The position numbers and the translations under genes are program-made. The notes below the pieces were generated by a model. The model saw only the letters and a list, made by a program, of their open reading frames with translations. It ran no database searches and was not told the origin of the DNA. Positions 12,322-64,000 of a DNA stretch of 64,000 nt are shown in pieces. Position 1 is the first letter of the stretch; each line of letters begins with the position of its first letter. The stretch is from Thermoanaerobaculia bacterium (GTDB lineage: Bacteria > Acidobacteriota > Thermoanaerobaculia > Multivoradales > JAGPDF01): the NCBI GenBank assembly GCA_963719555.1, contig CAVRCL010000009.1:26606-90605 (forward strand), written 5' to 3'.

Positions 12322-13309
12322 TCAGTGCGCGCGGCGAGGATCGACCCCAACCGCGATCGCCCGGGCGCGCGGATGGGCGTCGCGATAGACCGCCTGCAGG
12401 CGCTCGATGTCGACGTGGGTGTAACGCTGAGTGGTCGAGAGCGAGCTGTGGCCCAACAGCTCCTGGATGGCCCGCAGGTCGGCGCCGCACTCGAGCAGGT
12501 GGGTGGCGAAGGTGTGCCGCAGGGTATGGGGATGCACGCCGCTCGCCGTGGCGGTGGCGGCGACGTAGCGGTCGAGAATGCGGCGCACCGAGCGGTCGGT
12601 CAGGCGCTCGCCGCGCAGAGTTGACGAACAGCGGTTCCTCGGTCGCGGTGTCGCGGTGGTGGTGGTGGTGGCGGTGGCGGCGGCCGGCGGTGGCGCGCTC
12701 GCGCAGCGTCGTCCAGCCTCCGCGCCAGGCGCGCAGCGCCGCCTGCGCCGGGCGCCCGAAAGGCACCATGCGCTCCTTGCCCCCCTTGCCGAGGGTGCGC
12801 AGTACGCGCTCCTTGAGCTCGAGGTCGCGCCAGTCGAGACCGACCAGCTCGGCGACCCGCAACCCGGTGGCGTAGAGCAGCTCGAGGATGGCGCGATCGC
12901 GCTGCGCCATCGGTTCGTCGCCCGCCGGGGCGGCGAGCAGCGCTTCGATCTCGCCCGGGCGCAGATGGCGGGGCAGGAGTTGCGGCGCCTTCGGGGTGCG
13001 CACCCGCTGGGCAGGATTGGCCGCGGCCTCGCCCACCCGGCAGGCCCAGCGGAAGAAGGTGCGCAGAGCCGAGAGGGCGCGACCCTGGCTGCGCCGGCCG
13101 TGGTCTTTGGCGAGCGCGGCGAGGAAGGAGCGCACGGCGACGACGTCAATGGCAGCGAGGTCGATCGCCTCGGGCGGCGTGCTCCAGTAGTCGACGGAGA
13201 GGAACTCGACGAAGCGCAGGAGATCGCCTTCGTAGGCGCGCACCGTGTGCGGCGAGAGGGCGCGCTCGCCCTCGAGGTGGGCGAGGAAGCGGACGATCAG
13301 AGCCCGCAC
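12322..13309 (-). CDS. xerC: Tyrosine recombinase XerC (frameshift near 12620)
   Basis: [70 protein letters not shown]; between trmFO and hslVU. Confidence 0.9.
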
Positions 13310-26143: not shown

Positions 26144-29100
26144 ATGACCGGAATCCCCAAGTCTCTGGAGCGTCTTGTCCCGGCGGAGGTCCGCAAGCGG
26201 GGAAACGACTATTTCGTGCGCAAGGCGGTCCGCCTCGTTCGGGCCGAAGCCGGCTCCGTCACGGCGGAGGTGCGCGGTACGTTCCCGTACACGGTGGAGC
26301 TCCGGCAGCGCCACCGCATGGCCTACTACTCTTGTACCTGCCCCTACTTCGATCGCGAGCTCGAAGCCTGCAAACACGTCTGGGCGGTGGTCGCGACGGT
26401 GGCTTCGCGTTTGGGGCTCGAAAGTTGGCCCGCGCAGTCGGCGGATTGGTATGCCAGCCTGGAGCTCGCCGCCGGCGACTTCGAGTCTGTAGGTCCAGGA
26501 GCGAATGCGCGCGCGGCCGACGAGGATTCGCGTCAGGGACTTGTGAGGACCTCCACCCCTCTGTCTACGCCGCCGCCGGCAGCGGCCCTGGTCGAGGAGC
26601 CGGCACTCGTCGCGAGAAACTGGCAGACCGAGCTCGCGCGCATCGGCCGGTCCGCCCGGCATCACTCTTCGCCTTCGACGGAAGGGCCGGCCGCAGCGGC
26701 GCGCGAGCTGCTCTACGTGCTGCGAACACCGCTGGGGCACGAGGAGCGGCGCCTCCGCCTGACGTGCGAGGTGCGCTCTCCCGCCAAGGAGGGCGGGTGG
26801 GGGAAGCGAACGCACCTGCGGCTCGAACGCCATGCAATCCCTTCGCTGCCGGAGATCGCCGACCGAGAGATCCTCGGAATGCTGGCTGGAGTCCAGGTTG
26901 CGGACAGCTACGGCGGCGGTTTCGATTCCTGGCGGCGAGATCTGCTGCCTCACTCCTTCGACCTCGAGCCGTTCCAGGTTGCAGCACTGCTCCCGGCCCT
27001 GTGCGCGACCGGGCGCCTGCGGGCCGAGATCGTGGAAGCCGACAGTTCCAGGCAGCTCGGGCCCGCGATCGCCTGGCGGCCCGAGCCGTGGCGGCTGCGG
27101 CTGCGTCTCGCAGGGAGCGCCACCTCCCAAGCAGCGCCGCTTTCCGCTTACCAGCTCACTTCCGAGCTCTGGCAGGGGGAGCGGCGCGTCGAAGCCGGGG
27201 ATCGCCTGCAGTGGATCCTGCCTGGAGGTAGCCTCATCGCGGCCGAGTGGGCGTCGCCCTTCGACGACGGCGGAACGCCGGAGTGGCTGGAGCTTGCGGC
27301 CCCCGCCAGCGGACTCACGGTGCCGGCGGATGAAGTCGAGGCGTGGCTCATGGCGTTGCATCGTCTGCCGAGCGTGCCGGAGCTCGCGCTGCCGCCGGAG
27401 TGGACGCTCGCCGAAGGGGCGGACGTGGTGCGCCCGAGGCTCGTCGATCTCGGCGCCGGAGACGTTGCAGCCCTGGGGCCAGCGCAAGGCCGTCCTGCTC
27501 GAGCTTTCCTTCGCTTACGGCGAGGAGCGGCTCGACGCCCGGGATGCGCGCCCATGGATTCTCGACCTCGCTGGGCGGCGGCGGATCCGCAGAAGCACGA
27601 GCGCCGAAGTTGGCGCCGCCGCCCGCTTGTTCGAGCTCGGCGCGCGTTCGATTCCGTCGTACCGCGCCTCGGGTGAGAACCGCCTCGAGCTCAGCCCGGC
27701 GGCGGTTCCCGAATTCGTGCGCCAACTCCTCGCCGAGGGCTGGGAGGTCGAGGCCGAGAGCCGGGCCTTCCGGCCCCCCGGGAAGAGCTTCGTTCAGTCT
27801 CTCGAGCGGCCTCGACTGGTTCGACCTCGAAGGTGGCATCGAGTTCGGCGACGAGAAGGTCCCCCTGCCGAAGCTCCTCCAGGCGATGCGGGCCGGCAAG
27901 GGGATGGTCGAGCTCGGCGACGGCAGCTACGGCCTCCTGCCCGAGGCCTGGCTGGTGAACAACGCCCTCATGGGGGATGTCGGCGAGGTCGCGGGCGACA
28001 GCGTGCGCCTGTCGCGGCCGCAGGCGATGTTCGTCGACGCCTGGCTGCAGGGCGACGCGCTGGCCGAGGTCGTGGCCGACCCGCCCTTCGAGCGCTGGCG
28101 GCGCGAGCTCGCCGCCTTCTCCGGTATCCACCCGGTCGATGCGCCGAAGGGCTTTCGCGGCGAGCTCCGCGGCTATCAGCGCGAGGGGCTCGGCTGGCTG
28201 CTCTTCCTCGAGCGCTTCGGTTTCGGCGGCTGCCTCGCCGACGACATGGGACTCGGCAAGACGGTGCAGATCCTCGCCCTGCTCGCAGGGCGGCGAGCGC
28301 GCCGCTCCCGGCGCCCGGCGAGACACCGCGCGCGGTCGCCGCGGTGGAATTGGCGGCCGCCCCCGGCCGGCAGCCGTCGCTCATCGTCGTGCCGCGTTCG
28401 CTGCTCTACAACTGGCGCGAAGAGGCGGCCCGCTTCGCGCCGCGCCTCGCGATCCTCGAGCTCCACGGCGCCGAACGCCGCTGCGATCGCGCGACCCTCG
28501 CGGAGTTCGACCTCGTCCTCACCACCTACGGCACGCTCAAGCGGGACATCGATCTGCTGTCGGCGATCGAGTTCGACTACTGCATCCTCGACGAGGCGCA
28601 GGCGATCAAGAACTCGAACACCGCCGGGGCACGCGCCGTGCGCCGCTTGCGGGCGCGGCATCGTCTGGTCGCCACCGGCACGCCGGTCGAGAACCACCTG
28701 GGCGAGCTCTGGAGCCTGTTCGAGTTCCTGAACCCCGGGCTCCTCGGGCGCCTGTCGAACTTCCGCGGCGGTGAACGGCGCCGGCCGGAAGATTCCGCAG
28801 GAGACCCGCGAGCGGCTGGCGATGGCGCTGCGCCCGTTCCTGCTTCGCCGCACCAAGCAGCAGGTCGCTCCGGAGCTGCCGCTCAAGACCGAGCAGACGG
28901 TGCTCTGCGAGCTCGAAGGGACGCAGCGGCGGCTCTACGACGAGCTTCGGGATCACTATCGGCGCAGCCTCGCAGCGAGAGTCGCGAGTCAGGGTTGGGC
29001 GAAGAGCAAGATCCAGGTCCTCGAAGCACTTCTGCGGCTGCGTCAGGCGGCCTGCCACCCGGGTCTCCTCGATCCGCGCCGGGCGCACGACGAGAGCGCC

Positions 29101-53813: not shown

Positions 53814-56086
<2,273 letters not shown>

Positions 56087-56133
56087 CAACGGCGGCACAG
56101 CAGGGGAGTCGAGGGAGGCGGGGCGAACGGACC

Positions 56134-57537
56134 ATGTGCGGCATCTTCGGCATCGACAACGCGGACGACGCGGCGAATCTCGCCTATCTCGGCCTCTACG
56201 CGCTGCAGCATCGCGGCCAGGAGAGCTCCGGCATCTGCGCCTGGGACGGCGAGCGCATGCACGTCGAGCGCGGCATGGGGCACGTCGCGGAGATCTTCCC
56301 GGACAAGGTGCTGGCGCGCCTCCCGGGGCGGCGGGCGATGGGGCACACGCGCTACTCGACCGCCGGCTCGTCGGTGGTCGCCAACGCCCAGCCGATCGTG
56401 GTCAAGACCTCGATGGGGCCGGTCGGCATCGTGCACAACGGCAACCTCACCAACGCCGCCGCGATCCGCGCCCAGCTCGAACAGGGCGGTTCGATCTTCC
56501 AGACCACCAGCGACACCGAAGTCATCCTGCATCTCATGGCGCGCAATCCGCGCGCCGATGTCGTCGAGTCGCTGATGGTGGCGCTCTCGGAGGTCGAAGG
56601 GCGCCTATTCGCTCCTTCTGATTACCGACGGTTGCCTGATCGCGGCGCGCGATCCGCACGGCTTCCGGCCGCTCGCGATCGCCGAGTTCGAACGGCTTCC
56701 ACTGCTTCGCCTCGGAATCGTGCGCCTTCGACCTGCTGGGGGCGCGAAAGCTCCGCGAGCTCGAGCCCGGGCGAGGTCGCCGTGGCGAGGAACGGCGGGC
56801 TCGAGTCGTTCCGCCTGGCGCGAGAAGGTCGCTCCGGCGCGCTGCCTGTTCGAACACGTCTACTTCGCTCGTCCCGACAGCGTGGTCTTCGGCGACTCGG
56901 TAGCGGAGATTCGCCGCCGGCTGGGCGCCCAGCTGGCGCGCGAGGCGCCGGCCGCCGCCGACATCGTCGTGCCGGTGCCCGACAGCGGCCTCTACGCGGC
57001 GTTCGGCTACAGCCGCGAGTCGGGCCTGCCGTTCGAGCTCGGGATGACCCGCAACCACTACGTCGGCCGGACGTTCATCGAGCCCAAGCAGTCGATCCGC
57101 AACTTCGGCGTCAAGGTGAAGCTCAACCCGGTGCGCGGAGATCATCGCCGGCCAGCGGGTCGTGCTGATCGACGACTCGATCGTGCGCGGCACGACCTCG
57201 CGCAAGATCGTGCGCATGATGCGCGAGGCCGGCGCGGCCGAGGTCCACCTGCGCATCTCCTCGCCGCCGACCGCGCTGGCCCTGCTACTACGGCATCGAC
57301 ACCCCGCGCCGCACCGAGCTCATCGCGGCGCAGCAGTCGGTCGAGGAGATCCGCGCCTTCGTCGAAGCCGACTCGCTGGGTTACCTCTCCCTCGAAGGGC
57401 TGCGTCGGCTGCATGGGCGGCGCCAAGGCGAGCTACTGCACCGCCTGCTGGAGCGGCGACTATCCGCGTCCCCATCTCCGCCCAGCGACCGCCGCCAGAG
57501 CGAGCTCTTCCCCATCCGCGCGGAAGAGGAGTCGTAG
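56134..57537 (+). CDS. purF: Amidophosphoribosyltransferase (frameshifted)
   Basis: [66 protein letters not shown]. Confidence 0.96.
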
Positions 57538-57613
57538 CGCTAGACGCGGCGATTGCCTGCGATCCAGCGCGAGGCATCGCGGGTGCGGACGGCTGCGAAC
57601 TTGCTCGGCGGGA

Positions 57614-57868
57614 TCAGTAGTGGAAGCGGCACTGGATTACGATGATCTCTTCGCCCTCGATGCGATACACCAGGCGGTGCTCGCGATTGATGCGCCGCGA
57701 CCAACAGCCGGCGAGGTCATGTCTGAGCGATTCGGGCTTTCCGATACCGGCGAAGGGCGTGGCGCGAATGGAGTCGAGCAGAGAGCGGATGCGACCAACA
57801 ACCTTGGGATTAGTCTCTTTCCAGAACGCAACATCACGTGCCGCGCTCTCGGTGAAGCGTATTTTCAA
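57614..57868 (-). CDS. YoeB/Txe family toxin
   Basis: [31 protein letters not shown]...QCRFHY. Confidence 0.95.
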
Positions 57869-58113
57869 AGATCGACCTCGATCGTCTTGCCTTCGGCGGC
57901 CTCCTTCAAGCTCTGCGAAAGCGCGGCGCGGTTCTCTGCGGTCGATGTCAGGTAGGCCGTTTCATCCATGCTCTGCCATTCTGCGCCGGGCACCAGCGCG
58001 AACTTGCGCCCATCCGCCAGCGTGACGATGACGGTCTCTTCGCGTTCGATGACCGCATCCAGGATCTCGTCAGTCTTGGCGCGGAACTCTTTCAGCGAAA
58101 CGGCAGTGGTCAT
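57865..58113 (-). CDS. YefM/Phd family antitoxin
   Basis: MTTAVSLKEFRAKTDEILDAV, VIVT, EWQSMDETAYL, NRAALSQSL; 4-nt overlap with toxin. Confidence 0.92.
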   Translation of the reverse strand: MTTAVSLKEFRAKTDEILDAVIEREETVIVTLADGRKFALVPGAEWQSMDETAYLTSTAENRAALSQSLKEAAEGKTIEVDL

Positions 58114-58189
58114 GGCTGGTACTCCAGTGCAGGCGATTCTACTCCCGGCCGGTGGAGAGCTGAAGCAAGACGATCCGCCGCCGACGGTC

Positions 58190-58219
58190 GCGCCGAGGCG
58201 AGCTACTGCGCCGCCTGCT
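58190..58219 (+). repeat. purF duplicate fragment A (matches 57420-57449)
   Basis: GCGCCGAGGCGAGCTACTGCGCCGCCTGCT vs GCGCCAAGGCGAGCTACTGCACCGCCTGCT, 28/30 identical. Confidence 0.9.
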
Positions 58220-58330
58220 TCCAAGCGCCAGGCTGTGTCGCATGAGATGGCGCTTACCCTGAGACTGGTATCGGCTTGATGCAGACCTGGTTCAGGTCGC
58301 CTGCAACGAAGTGGTGCGAGAGGAAGACGA

Positions 58331-58924
58331 ATGAGCAGTCGCGTCTCAACCCTAGCCGCAGTGGTGATTCTCATCGCAGTCAAGGCTTGGGGTCTTCCCG
58401 GCCCGGTCCCTGCTGGCCCCGGAGCATCGCCGGGCAGCTTGTACACATTCCCAGAGGATGACAAACCCGTAGTCGTCATGACCTCGAAGGGCACCATGGT
58501 TCCGATGGATCTCTCGTTCACGCTCTACGCTTCCGGAACGGCGGTGATCGAGAACTCAATTCGCGAAGGCTCTGAGGAGGTTGTTCTCCCTCTCGAAGAG
58601 CGCGAAGCAATCTTGCGCGACATCGTCGATGGAGATCTTCTGAACTATGACGCCGCAGCTCTCTCGCGGGAGCAAGATCGTATTTCCGGGCTCCACAATG
58701 TCGGAGACTCCCCCAACAGCGACCTTGCAGCGTTCGTCGTCAGTATGAGAATCCTGCGGGACGACGGCCGAGGCGCTCCCATGGTGGAGAAGGCGGCGAC
58801 AGTTCACATCTACGGGGCGAGCCGGCTCGCGAAGGAATTTCCCTCCATACGCGCCTACCAGGCCCTGGCCGACCTCGAGAAGATATTCCGCAACCAACTC
58901 TCCCGCACCGAGATTGCGAAATGA
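58331..58924 (+). CDS. Exported hypothetical protein, apparent paralogue of 43657-44328
   Basis: Intact 197 aa ORF, SD GAGG, N-terminal hydrophobic signal ending AWG, visibly lower GC. Confidence 0.78.
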   Translation: MSSRVSTLAAVVILIAVKAWGLPGPVPAGPGASPGSLYTFPEDDKPVVVMTSKGTMVPMDLSFTLYASGTAVIENSIREGSEEVVLPLEEREAILRDIVDGDLLNYDAAALSREQDRISGLHNVGDSPNSDLAAFVVSMRILRDDGRGAPMVEKAATVHIYGASRLAKEFPSIRAYQALADLEKIFRNQLSRTEIAK

Positions 58925-58948
58925 GGCGTTCTCTCTCTTACATATTCT

Positions 58949-59040
58949 CCTGCTGGAGCGGCGACTACCGCGTCCCCATCTCCGCCACCGACCGCCGCCA
59001 GAGCCTCCTCTTCCCCATCCGCGCGGAAGAGGAGTCGTAG
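58949..59040 (+). repeat. purF duplicate fragment B including stop codon (matches 57444-57537)
   Basis: 92 nt encoding [29 protein letters not shown]; differs from the gene copy by 4 substitutions and two 1-nt indels. Confidence 0.95.
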
Positions 59041-59046
59041 GAGAAG

Positions 59047-59977
59047 TCAGGCCGCAGGCCGGACCGGCACCTGGGGCGCCGCCGCGAGGCGGGTGGCGAG
59101 GGGGGCGGCGGGCCACTTCCGCTCGACGAGGGCGATCTCGGCGGACCAGAGGGCGACGCGCATTCCGGCGCGGGCGATCATGACCAGTTGCTGGGCGAGG
59201 AAGAGGACGAGGAGGACGGCTCCGCCGCTCGGCGGGCAGGAGTCCGCGGAAGGCGAGGTAGAGCGCCGAGATCGCGGCGAAGGCGAGCGCCAGCGGGATC
59301 CAGATCGCGAGCACCTGCCAGGGGCGGCGCAGCACGGCGGCGCAGCGTCGCGCGGAAGACGCGGACGCCTTTGCGGACGTCGTCGCGCGCCACGCGGATG
59401 CGGGCGAGGTCGAGGGCGAGCTGGACCAGCAGGATCGCGAACAGGGCAACCAGGATGCCGGCGAGGCCGAGCCAGAACTTGGCGCCCTCCGGCGGTGTCG
59501 TCGAGGCTGGCGCGCACGCCGAAGATCGGTCCGGCGAGGATTCCGGCCACGAGGAGCGCCGCCGGCGCCGCCGCCAGGCCCATGCGCAGGAAGCGGCCGA
59601 AGAAGCGGCCGGCGCCGCGGCCGAAGCGGTGCGCCAGGCGCGACGGGTCGCCCGAGAGCAGGCTCTCCAGAGCGCCGCCGGCGGCGAGGACGTTCCACAG
59701 CAGCGTCAGCACGAAGACGACGATGAGGAGTTGCCCGACGCCGTTGCCCCAGCCTGCCGCCCGGTGCGCATCAGGTCGGCGAAGAGCGGCAGCGAGAAGC
59801 GGCGCAGGAACTCGTCCCCGGCCGGTGCGTTGGCGAGCGCTTTGTCGAGGTGGCGCAGCACCGGGTAGAAGGCGACCGCGGCGATCGCCAGGTGCGCGCC
59901 CCAGAGCAGCAGGACGAGGCGCGGGGTGCGGCGGAGCGGCGCAGCGCGCGCGAGTGTCGGTCAGCGAAGAGAGTCAT
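59047..59977 (-). CDS. Multi-pass membrane protein of unknown function (frameshifted)
   Basis: ATG 5 nt after the aminopeptidase stop; hydrophobic segments across frames, GAGRFFGRFLR, LFLAQQLVMIARAGMRVALW. Confidence 0.65.
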
Positions 59978-59982
59978 GCGGC

Positions 59983-62085
59983 TCACATTCCCAGCAGGGC
60001 CATGCCCTGCTGCACCCAGAAGAGGAAACCGGTCGCGAGCTTGCGGGCCGCGGCCGGGTCGGGCTCGGTGCGGCGCTCGTTGTTGAGCCGGTCGGCGTCG
60101 AGGGCGAGCTTGCCGTCGGGATCGAGCCGGACTTCGAGGAGCTTCTCCGGGCGCTCGTACTCCCATTTCGCCCAGCGTTGGCCGTCGTCCCAGAGGCGGC
60201 GCTCGGGCTCCTTGCCTTCGAAGGTGAGCTCGACCTCGACCGGCAGGATGACCTCGCCGCGCTGGCGCAGCTGCAGGATGCTGCGGTAGTTGCGGGTCTC
60301 GTTCTTGTCCGCCTCGCGCTCGAGCTCGACGGCCTTCTCCTCATCGATCTCGATCTCGGCGCCGTCGCTGCAGGACCCTGCCGCGCGCCTGCTGCGCCTT
60401 CTCGCTCGTCAGGTCGAGGATCGCCGGATCGAGGACGCCGGGGCTCTCGACCGTCTGGGCGAAGAAGTCGTCGAGCTCGCGACCGGAGACCTCCTCGGCG
60501 ACGGCGAAGAAGTCGGCGCCGCGCGGATGGCCGAAGCGGAAGCGCTCGTGGTAGGTCCGCATCACCCGCGCCATGGTCTCGGTGCCGAGCATCCCCTCGA
60601 GCGTTTCGAGCATCAGCGCCGGGCGGGCATAGGCGTTGAAGCCGTACTGGTTGCGCGAGAACTTCCAGGCGAGGGTGGCGATCTGGTCGTAGCGGCGCTC
60701 GAGGCTGTTCTGCATCCGGTCGGCCTCGACGGCGCCCAGCTCGAGGCCGAGGAAGTCGACGAACGAGGCGTCGCTGCCGTAGCCCAGATCCATCACCTTG
60801 GCGGTCGAGTAGGTGGTGAAGCCTTCGTCGAGCCAGGCCTCCTCGAACTCGTTGCTGCCGACGAGGCCGTACCAGAACTGATGGCCGAACTCGTGCACGG
60901 TGACGATCTCCGCCTCGCGCATCAGGCCATCGCAGGGCCAGAAGTTGTAGAGATAGCTGGTGCCACAGAAGAAGAGCGTCGGATACTCGACGCCGGAGGC
61001 GCCGCCCGCGCCGGGAGTCGGGTCGACGAGCGTCAGCGTCGGGTAGGGATAGGCGCCGTACCAGAGGCCGTACCACTTGAGGGCGAGCTTCGCCGCCTCG
61101 AAGTGGCGGGCGATCTGCGGCTCGTGCCCCGGTTGCAGGAGCAGCAGGATCTCGACGTCCCGGAGCTTCACCTCTTCGAGGCTGCGGTCGAGGAGCTTCG
61201 CAGTCGCCGCGTACTCCTGCGGCGTCACGTCCGCGTCGGCGGAGAAGCGCTCGCGGTACTCGAGGAAACGAGGGTCGGCGGTCCAGGCGAAGTCGTGCAC
61301 GTCGGCCTGCTCGTGGACGTAGGTCGTCGTGCCGTCGGGATTCTCCCGTCGGGCGATCTCCGGACCGGTCGCGCCGACGACGAAGCGCTTCGGCACCGTG
61401 ATCTCGACCTTGAACCGGCCGTAGTCGGCGTAGTACTCGGTGTTGGCGTGGTACTGGTGGCAGTTCCAGCCGCTCTTCTCGCGGCCGCGCATCCCCGCCG
61501 GTTCGTAGACGCCGAGCTTCGGGAACCACTGCGTCACGGCGAAGAAGTCGCCCTTGTAGCCGGCGCGCGCGAAGACCTTGGGGAGCCTGGGCGTGAAACT
61601 CGACGTCGATCGTGATTTCGCCGCCCGGCGGCACCGGCACGGGCAGTGCGACCCGCGCGACGGTGCGATCGTCGGCGTTGTCGTCGTCCGGCTGCTCGAA
61701 GGTGAGCGACGGCAGGAGATCCTCGCCGGTCGCGAGCTTCATCGACTTGACCTCAGTCCAGCCCCAACCGTCGGTCTCGGCCTGGTCGCGGCGGAGCTGA
61801 CCGCCGGACTCGACGATAGAAGGTGCTGCGGTTGTTGCGGAAGGCGTTCCAGTAGAGATGGAACCAGAGGTCGGAGACGGCGTCCGCGGGGTCGGTCGAG
61901 GGATTCCGCCAGACGATGCGCTCGCGGCCAGTGATCTCCTTCTTCTCGGCGTCGAGCTGCACCGAGATGTCGTAAGAGACGACCGGGTCGGCGGTTGCCG
62001 GGAGCTTCGGAGCAGCCAGCGCCGGGAGTCGTGCAGAGGAACGCGAGAGAGGAGCTGCGGTCGCGCGAAGAAAATGAGCGGGCAT
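59983..62085 (-). CDS. M1 family zinc aminopeptidase (frameshifted)
   Basis: LWFHLYWNAF, QWFPKLGVYE, VHDFAW, ASGVEYP, VHEFGHQFWYGLVGSNEFEEAWLDEG. Confidence 0.9.
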
Positions 62086-62201: not shown

Positions 62202-64000
62202 ATGGTCCTGTCGCTGCGTCGTTCGTTGCTCGCGATCTTCGTCGTCTCGGCCGCGATGACACCCCCAGGGGTGGCCTTCCGCCGTTGCCGTCGACCGTGC
62301 GGCGCCGAGCGACTATGCCGACCTGCGCTGGCGGCAGCTCGGGCCGTTCCGCGGCGGCTGGGCGACCGCCGTCGCCGGGATTCCCGGGGATTCCGGCGAC
62401 CTTCTTCTTCGGCGCCGCCGATGGCGGCGTCTGGAAGACGACCGACGCCGGGGTGACCTGGCGGCCGATCTTCGAGCGCGCGGCGGCGTCGTCGATCGGC
62501 GCCCTGACGATCGCGCCGAGCGATCCGCAACGTGATCTGGGTCGGCACCGGGCAGGTGCATCAGCGCTGGGACGTCGTCTCCGGGGAGGGACTCTTCCGC
62601 TCGATCGACGGCGGCGCCACCTGGACGCCGGCAGGACTCGCCGACAGCCGGCATGTCGGCAAGATCTGGGTCGATCCCGGGAACGCCGAGGTCGCCATCG
62701 TCGCCGCGCTCGGGCACCTCTTCGGACCGGGCGGCGAGCGCGGGCTCTTCCGCACCGAAGACGGCGGCAGGAGCTGGACCCAGGTGCTCTACCGCGACGC
62801 CGATACCGGGGCGGTGGAGATCGCCGGCGATCCGGCGCATCCGGAGCGGCTCTACGCGGCGCTCTGGCAGGTGCGACGCCACCCCTGGCTGGACTACTTC
62901 CAGCCGACCGAGGGGCCCGGGAGCGGCGTCTACAGCTCGACCGATGGCGGGCGCAGCTGGGCTCCGACCGGTCGCTCCGGCTGGCCCGCGGGCGATCTCG
63001 GCCGGATCGCGCTCGCCGTGGCGCCGGGGAGCGCCGGGCCAGAAGGTCTGGGCGGCGGTCTCCGGCAAGGGGCTCTTCGCCTCGAGCGACGGCGGCGCGA
63101 CCTGGGCGCTGGTGAATGGCGACGGCAGCCTCGCGAACAGCTACATGGCGAACCTCACCGCCGATCCGCGCGACTCCGCGCGACTCTGGGTGATGGGCCG
63201 CGGCCTGCGCCGGTCGGACGACGGCGGCAAGAGCTTCACGATCGCCAAGGGCGCGCCGGGCGGGGACGACTACCACATCCTCTGGATCGATCCGGCGGAC
63301 AGCCGGCGCATGATCACCGGCGCCGACCAGGGGGCGGTAGTGACGTTGAACGGCGGCGCCTCCTGGAGCAGCTGGTACAACCAACCGACGGGACAGTTCT
63401 ATCGCCTGGCGGCCGACCGGCGGTTCCCCTACTGGATCTACAGCGGGCAGCAGGACAGCGGCACGGTGGCGATCGCGAGCCGCAGTGACTACGGGCAGCT
63501 CACCTTCCGCGACTGGCATCCGGTGGGTGGCGACGAGCGTGACGGCGACATCCCCGATCCGACGAATCCCGACATCGTCTACGGCGCCGGCCTCGGCGGG
63601 CGGCTGTCGAAGTGGAACGCGCGCACCGGCGAGGTGCAAAACGTCTCTCCCTGGCCGGTGGCGAGCTACGGCGCGCGCCCCGGCACGACGCGCTACCGCT
63701 ACAGCTGGATCACTCCGGTGGCGATCTCGCTCCGTCCGCCGCATGCGATCTACCAGGGCGCCCAGGTCCTCTTCCGTTCTCTCGACGGCGGCGCCTCGTG
63801 GAGCACCGTGAGCCCCGATCTCACGGGCGCGGTGGCCGGCGCGACCGGATGCGAGGGCGACGTGCCGGTGGCGCGGGCGACGGCCTGCGGCTATCGGCGT
63901 CATCTTCGCCATCGCACCCTCTGCCGGCGGCCGACGGCCAGGTCTGGGTCGGTACCGACAACGGCCGTGTCCAGCTCACCCGCGACGACGGCGCGACCTG
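62202..64000 (+). CDS. BNR/VPS10 (sortilin-like) repeat exported protein (frameshifted, runs off window end)
   Basis: WRQLGPFRGG, GGVWKTTDAGVTW, many SxDGGxxW Asp-boxes, GDDYHILWIDP, QPTGQFY, GQQDSG. Confidence 0.85.

Follow-up and report, generated by a model that had tools for sequence, protein, structure and literature searches.

A duplicated and split purF 3′ end at an integrase-free hotspot for small cargo in a Thermoanaerobaculia genome

Integrase-free hotspots are common in bacterial genomes. Integrative elements typically carry a copy of the 3′ end of their target gene, and integron cassettes are small, promoter-poor units, often toxin–antitoxin (TA) pairs, that stack without mobility genes of their own. 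Displaced 3′ ends in type VI secretion system (T6SS) and Rhs loci have been ascribed to homology-facilitated illegitimate recombination (HFIR) under the term 'C-terminal displacement', in the available part of PMC5361080. In Escherichia coli, circles integrating by a single crossover duplicated 109–950 bp of the homologous gene end (available part of PMC3240628). The usual double-recombination model explains how cargo is swapped, not how it first enters a site, and the locus described here, the 3′ end of purF in an uncultured bacterium of the Thermoanaerobaculia (Acidobacteriota), reads as a natural scar of such an additive event. It lies in a 64-kb stretch of DNA, the window, which is positions 26606–90605 of contig C9 of genome G000, a metagenome-assembled genome of 3.54 Mb in 13 contigs, rated 59% complete. 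We compared the locus with 40 relatives (16 congeners, 11 of them with readable DNA past purF).

The purF gene (amidophosphoribosyltransferase; 56136–57537, plus strand, open reading frames (ORFs) beginning MCGIFGI) is full length, is collinear with purF of 10 congeners at 82–93% identity and uses the tail that lies beside a yoeB–yefM TA cassette. Its last 118 nt recur downstream on the same strand in two pieces, A′ (58190–58219) and B′ (58949–59040, with stop codon), split by a gene for an exported protein. A′ matches 28 of 30 positions of the CxxC region of the working tail (A, its reference copy, 57420–57449). B′ matches the working tail up to its stop (B, 57444–57537) in 88 of 94 aligned columns, TAG included, with four substitutions and two one-base gaps; B and B′ have exact runs of 19 nt in common, at 93% identity overall. 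The duplication and its split, which an earlier note had proposed from the sequence of the window, are real: at up to three mismatches the A′ 30-mer occurs at only two sites in the window, and a second match to it arose in 0 of 100 dinucleotide shuffles. The hexamer CCTGCT forms the final 6 nt of A, common to B, and again the last bases of A′ and the first bases of B′, with copies at three boundaries (57444, 58214 and 58949) and a 6-nt direct repeat flanking 58220–58948. This exact abutment with six shared nucleotides argues that A′ and B′ were once contiguous.

The working tail is an allele like those of G003, G004 and G013, B′ carries the CCTCCTC variant of G010 and is 97.8% identical to the G010 tail, and at two positions A′ departs from all congeners, namely its left edge and a GCC codon for ACC. 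The GCC variant is also found in purF of G017, a different genus. Read in frame, A′ continues for eight codons to a TGA. The earlier note took the differences between the copies for codon changes like those of a relative's allele, but two of them, the one-base gaps, are probably indels of the assembly. These two one-base extras in the working tail occur in G000 only and are absent from all nine aligned congeners (10 genomes aligned). As purF is frameshifted at several places, and contigs assembled from public runs (Logan) lack the added base at sites that include 56689, 57138/57140 and 57275, the extras in the tail are probably assembly errors and not allelic codon changes. ORF listing shows both purF and the convergent gene downstream of the insert broken by one-base insertions in this assembly, and the rating of 59% complete for 3.5 Mb in 13 contigs may be due to such indel errors and not to DNA that is missing.

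From 58949 to 60549 the window is collinear with the purF tail and downstream DNA of four congeners (G011, G013, G008 and G004), and from 58951 with that of G007. The site is empty in these five, where only 6–8 nt separate the stop codons of purF and the convergent gene, and thus B′ is the ancestral purF tail, still in place; on this collinearity the displacement of the 3′ end is real. The convergent gene (59047–59960, minus strand), whose stop starts 6 nt past B′, encodes a membrane protein of ~305 aa in G010 with no Pfam family, and forms the right border of the site. The working purF tail is the left end of the low-GC insert, beside yoeB–yefM (GC 0.58–0.63 in the insert, 0.70–0.75 in the flanks).

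Across the genus, the 6–8 nt that separate purF from the convergent gene are a hotspot for small cargo without mobility genes, with at least four unrelated cargo sets, and empty sites, between the same two core genes. Four of the 11 readable congeners carry cargo, six are empty (among them G015, by protein match only) and G006 has a different neighbour; elsewhere the contig or match ends in or at purF (G001, G002 and G012) or the matches are only partial or weak (G014 and G016). The cargo is the same TA cassette alone in G003, an exported protein with a ParE/Unstab_antitox pair in G005, two minus-strand genes in G009 (one for a 111-aa protein with weak winged-helix (HTH) matches, the other for a protein of 182 aa with no family) and a 494-aa DUF5122 protein in G010. 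TA pairs of three different families have been gained at this one gap in one genus. In all four congeners the cargo starts after the purF stop codon and has left no tail copy, by which we rejected an insertion core common to all cargo at the site; no second purF tail occurs in any congener locus aligned.

Identity profiles of purL and purF against nine congeners (window 55000–57540) are mosaic: 55727–56093 and 56169–56689 are 95–99% identical to G011 as against 83–94% to G003, and purF 56986–57434 is 95–98% identical to G003, with identities after 56986 of 95–98% to G009 and G010 as well. The mosaic indicates that homologous exchange between species of the genus is probably frequent. Mosaic flanks are the pattern expected for core genes beside recombination-driven, integrase-free hotspots (available part of PMC5635113). 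The C terminus of the convergent membrane protein varies among congeners too, ending in AAGTRT in G010, extended in G003 and ending in AAAPQVPVRPAA in G000 and G011, and therefore both gene ends at the junction are plastic.

The insert shows how old it is when set beside other copies. Searching metagenome contigs with the exported protein as query yielded two further loci, L124 and L125, which are identical over the 649-nt TA region compared and were counted as one lineage. Their gene order is that of the window (purF, TA cassette, exported-protein gene, downstream gene). Identity of L124 to the window is 90% in purF, 84.8% in the TA region, 87.9% in the exported-protein gene and 85% in the downstream gene, with corresponding values for G003 of 92% (purF), 85.6% (TA region) and 90% (downstream gene). 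Since the TA region and the exported-protein gene have diverged about as far as their flanks (85–92%), the islet is old, and we propose that it was inherited, or spread by flanking homologous recombination, over species-level divergence. Cargo spans 0.6–1.6 kb in the four cargo-bearing congeners and L124/L125, and no integrase was found in any of it. L124/L125 lack 58183–58348, a stretch with A′, the leader and the opening six codons of the exported-protein gene, whose ORF starts in them at a GTG inside sequence homologous to the window spacer. In place of B′ they hold a 14–23-nt remnant of the tail end before the downstream stop, preceded by 37 nt of no placed origin; even so, the remnant shows that the old purF end was displaced in that lineage also.

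The cargo itself opens with a 76-nt spacer (S1, 57538–57613) between the purF and yoeB stops, which is common to G003 and L124/L125 and has no genomic repeat. The yoeB gene (57614–57868, minus strand, 84 aa; PF06769, 109 bits against a cut-off of 27, E=1.2e-31) and the yefM gene (57865–58113, minus strand, 82 aa; PF02604, 48.6 bits against a cut-off of 29.8, E=7e-13) overlap by 4 nt, with yefM directly upstream in one minus-strand operon, and both ORFs are intact despite the indel-rich assembly. Pfam thereby confirms the two as a predicted type II toxin–antitoxin pair on the strand opposite to purF, as the earlier note had read them. A second 76-nt spacer (S2, 58114–58189), upstream of yefM and including a short joint segment, is common to L124/L125 up to 58182 and to G003 up to ~58155. 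A′ follows, then a 111-nt 5′ leader (58220–58330), the exported-protein gene (58331–58924, plus strand) and, between its stop and B′, a spacer of 24 nt (58925–58948). The leader has no relative among 131 loci searched, and the 166 nt at 58183–58348 are matched by the other 131 loci in the A′ part only, within purF tails, which gives no origin for the segment.

The exported-protein ORF noted earlier is likewise upheld: it encodes 197 aa with a hydrophobic, signal-like N-terminal segment, and has no Pfam family. Homologues occur in 8 of 38 genomes of the family, this one included, as a small genus-level protein family. Its best matches there are 48–49% identical (G011 and G013), a paralogue on contig C1 of the same genome is 45% identical and the L124/L125 protein 84%; Atlas returned hypothetical-protein clusters only and a DUF6438 lead at 0.88. 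The closest genomic homologue (48%; L025, G011:C8, 658–3182) sits, by reading of the ORF list, between an ORF resembling a plasmid replication initiator and a secreted metalloprotease-like ORF. No flanking DNA in common with the window surrounds the homologues in G011, G013, G009, G007 and G001 or on G000:C1. The setting of the G011 homologue suggests that the protein family may travel on mobile DNA.

ORF, repeat and Pfam listings show no integrase, transposase or terminal inverted repeat in or beside the insert, in agreement with the earlier note, and 57538–58948 contains no recombinase ORF. The nearest tyrosine recombinase match (PF00589) is ~45 kb away at C9:39011–39569; serine recombinase families were not searched genome-wide. 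That site (window ~12406–12964) holds two adjacent PF00589 matches, two domain halves in different frames, and probably represents one xerC/xerD-like gene that a frameshift of the assembly has cut in two. Of 76 repeat pairs, the 25 longest include no inverted repeat linking the two ends of either module, and with no transposase ORF present a transposon or miniature inverted-repeat transposable element (MITE) was ruled out. A repetitive extragenic palindromic (REP)-like or MITE-like element was ruled out as well, the four insert spacers having no other genomic copy beyond chance words of 13–17 nt. An integron cassette array was rejected on the absence of a nearby PF00589 match and on spacers unrepeated in the genome, attC structure models not having been run. 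Promoter and terminator searches of 57300–59200 found none, and no more than in shuffles.

A second scar of this kind lies elsewhere in the same genome. Self-BLAST returned 363 same-strand repeat pairs spaced 100–15,000 nt apart, of which 32 were picked by eye for GC and ORF checks; four loci besides purF (on C6, C8, C7 and C12, the last being L016) were inspected closely, which is not a census, and a scripted ORF-end screen was uninformative at 69% GC, where spurious long ORFs abound. At G000:C6:202999–205405 (L014 1999–4405), 182 nt comprising the last ~90 nt of a 673-aa TPR-protein gene and the start of a lipoprotein gene recur at 84% identity in a copy 2 kb downstream, around an insert (GC 0.62) with a lipoprotein paralogue together with a 391-aa exported protein. 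In G011 the site is single-copy and matches the displaced copy at 93%. Both displaced tails (window 58192–58200; L014 ~4224) start with the 9-mer GCCGAGGCG, each one base off the working alleles. Among words of like composition its frequency ranks near the 95th percentile, and the shared start is probably chance. The recurring capture route suspected in the earlier note gains this one case, but its lysE and DGFE loci were not corroborated as similar cases, the window having no other repeat pair of at least 90% identity (seed 13, length at least 24).

The remaining repeats differ in kind. At G000:C8:8244–8986 (L013 1745–2487), a HicB-like antitoxin gene and an 84-aa partner with no Pfam family lie between 80-nt direct repeats (86%) in an insert of GC 0.58, intergenic beside groEL; the relatives have no clean empty site and do not resolve its history. 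G000:C7:96617–105406 (L015) is a classical island of 8.7 kb and GC 0.62 with a tyrosine recombinase (C7:104011–104508) and perfect direct repeats (49/49); its left repeat is the 3′ end of tRNA-Arg(CCG), one of four clustered tRNA genes. Inside a gene of the window (62587–63802) are five 39-nt units, 67–85% identical and 145–696 nt apart, which by reading would encode an S-x-D-G-G-x-x-W motif like BNR/Asp-box repeats.

For the purF scar we consider it somewhat probable that integration was homology-anchored and recombinase-free, by HFIR or by single crossover of a circle; the order of events and the pathway given here are what we infer from the arrangement. DNA with a purF 3′ end and yoeB–yefM, as in G003, would have recombined homologously within purF on its left, and on its right an illegitimate joint, at a brief GC-rich match, would have connected it to the tail of the resident purF, ~118 nt before the stop. 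The substrate could have been a linear fragment (HFIR) or a circularised fragment with ~118 nt of purF tail, entering by a single crossover. In either form purF would keep a complete tail and the resident tail, A′ plus B′, would be moved downstream as a dead copy. A second illegitimate event would then have brought the exported-protein gene, with its own leader, into the dead tail at CCTGCT, splitting A′ from B′, and the L124/L125 lineage would later have lost A′, the leader and most of B′. As in described displacements, the old 3′ end is kept downstream at its ancestral position, the anchor gene shows homologous exchange and no recombinase is borne by the element. The left edge of A′ is CGAGGCG, a word found also at the right joint of the G003 TA cassette and at the native end of the downstream gene, and the end of the segment left of A′ may, tentatively, be the 3′ end of the donor's downstream gene.

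Several observations weigh against this scheme. Aligned with the right flank of G003, the segment left of A′ scores 20, where shuffles score 11.8 ± 3.9 and 23 of 500 reach that score. The microhomologies at the joints are short (5–7 nt): CCTGCT flanks the exported-protein segment and CGAGGCG lies at the A′ edge, and both words are common in the genome; GCCGAGGCG occurs 669 times in 3.54 Mb. No intermediate was found among the congeners and contigs seen, neither a TA cassette with unsplit A′B′ nor an exported-protein gene in the tail without the TA cassette. Deriving L124/L125 from a form like that of G000 takes two separate deletions and leaves 37 nt in L124 unexplained. Four to five independent insertions within ~120 nt exceed what neutral, untargeted illegitimate recombination would give, and the cause of the hotspot is unexplained. 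Matches to ComEC and DprA are present, but also in 10 and 11 of 14 control genomes, and say little about competence; dprA, cited in the earlier note beside transformation, is indeed there, yet it is near-universal among the controls. No Ku was detected in G000, whose completeness is rated at 59%.

The same recombinase-free chemistry could have run in the reverse order, the exported-protein gene entering the working tail first and truncating purF eight codons past the CxxC, and a complete tail with the TA cassette then coming from a G003-like relative and being selected for repairing purF. The eight codons and TGA that follow A′ in frame could serve as a short C terminus, a donor with the order purF–TA–downstream gene exists in G003, and selection would account for the fixation of a rare illegitimate event. 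Yet a truncated purF would have to be viable, no genome or contig seen has one, and insertion into a dead copy avoids the assumption; we regard this order as unlikely. A recombinase supplied in trans, put forward in the earlier note beside HFIR, could have carried out nested site-specific integration: two circles would have crossed over in the purF tail with CCTGCT as the core, the circle of the exported-protein gene bearing the core only and the TA circle an attP that mimics the whole tail (A′–core–B). CCTGCT does stand exactly at all three boundaries, both events can be drawn as one-position crossovers, a target 3′-end copy is typical of integrative elements, and the A′ codon shared with purF of G017 is such as an element-borne arm might carry. 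However, neither the islet and its surroundings nor the four other cargo loci nor L124/L125 contain a recombinase gene, and both G003 and L124/L125 bear the same TA cassette with no A′ on its right. The other cargo is placed beyond the stop codon and away from the core, with no tail copy; CCTGCT occurs 4,923 times in the genome; and the repeats are 93% identical, as against perfect at the genome's own integrase island. Positive evidence for the recombinase in trans is lacking, HFIR fits better, and we hold the nested scheme to be distinctly unlikely. A larger integrase island in the purF 3′ end, with B and B′ as attL and attR and the rest deleted along with its integrase, would suit direct repeats of 92–94 nt around low-GC cargo at a gene 3′ end, and the islet is old enough for such decay. 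The cargo-bearing congeners and L124/L125 show neither integrase nor larger island around their small cargo, though, none of the relatives checked has such an island at the purF site, and the position of A′ between the cargo modules and its exact abutment to B′ are left unexplained, so a decayed island strikes us as very unlikely.

That the locus is a chimaera of strains with different purF-downstream alleles is barely credible. Errors are frequent in the assembly, which has many one-base insertions and 59% completeness, none of the Logan contigs listed spans the whole of 57400–59050 and 57396–57503 has no cover among the listed pieces; but every junction is bridged with 0 differences, from the purF stop into yoeB (57504–57791, X2 record 13), from yefM through A′ into the leader (57959–58258, X1 record 4) and from the exported-protein gene into B′ (58614–58986, X1 record 5). 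Runs X1 and X2 may stem from the window's own source sample, and this bridging is an assembly check, not independent biology. The adjacencies of purF with the TA cassette and of the TA cassette with the exported-protein gene recur in L124/L125 from other metagenomes, and it is just in the stretch without cover that repeats would be expected to interrupt short-read graphs. Among the joints listed from the run contigs none is an empty site or a circle joint; those listed have sides of 20–44 nt, are flagged unreliable and do not agree with the repeat boundaries. Highly improbable, finally, is an undescribed mechanism that targets the purF junction and other gene ends in the genus, whether a trans-acting, word-recognising enzyme or a recombinase-free, tail-mimicking cassette shuttle, in which small promoter-bearing cassettes would circularise at short GC-rich words, such as the GCCGAGGCG with which the two displaced tails start, and re-enter by RecA crossover through a carried mimic of the host tail. 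A dedicated system is disfavoured because no recombinase lies within ~45 kb, the TA cassette occurs without A′ in two other lineages and the other insertions of the site lie at other positions; the repeats are also imperfect, the spacers unique in the genome and the islet old.

Taken together, the locus is best read as an old scar left by ordinary recombination at a hotspot of a known kind, and not as a sign of an active undescribed capture system or a new molecular machine. The suggestion in the earlier note that this was the best candidate for an undescribed system is not borne out by an islet so old that its TA region is 85–86% identical between lineages, and homology-anchored tail displacement as a process has already been described for Rhs and T6SS loci (available part of PMC5361080). 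What makes the locus interesting is that it exemplifies in nature processes otherwise met chiefly in laboratory constructs and polymorphic-toxin loci: the tail of a housekeeping gene duplicated and displaced, and a second insertion then made, as we reconstruct it, into the dead copy.

Set against known systems, the purF cargo resembles integron cassettes as small stacked modules without mobility genes of their own, but no intI-type gene lies near the islet, no attC-like repeats are shared, the cassettes are in opposite orientations and their location is a gene tail. With integrative islands that target 3′ ends, of which C7 provides an internal example, the locus has in common a 3′ end duplicated around cargo of lower GC with the gene left intact; it differs in the lack of an integrase, in repeats that are 93% identical and not perfect, in the extra tail fragment between modules and in the size of the cargo (1.4 kb). 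Closer are integrase-free core-gene hotspots, as far as the available part of PMC5635113 describes them, in which differing accessory genes likewise lie between the same core genes, without mobility genes and with recombination in the flanks. In that model double homologous recombination swaps cargo without a scar, whereas the purF locus keeps the scar of an illegitimate joint, that is, of cargo addition. C-terminal displacement in Rhs, CDI (contact-dependent growth inhibition) and T6SS effector–immunity loci, in the available part of PMC5361080, shares with purF a conserved upstream anchor, a new 3′ end with new downstream genes, an old end orphaned downstream and the absence of an integrase, and repeated events there build nested arrays. 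At purF, by contrast, the anchor is a housekeeping enzyme, the tail brought in hardly differs from its predecessor, which leaves the protein unchanged, and a TA pair with an exported protein, in two layers only, makes up the cargo in place of a toxin tip and immunity gene. The E. coli events in the available part of PMC3240628, like HFIR in transformable bacteria, were laboratory ones with designed substrates, whereas the purF pathway is read from a scar of species-level age; all of these combine, for purF in our reconstruction, one homologous anchor with one illegitimate joint. Most of the events recovered in E. coli duplicated 109–950 bp of the gene end, and the 118 nt duplicated at purF have the same architecture.

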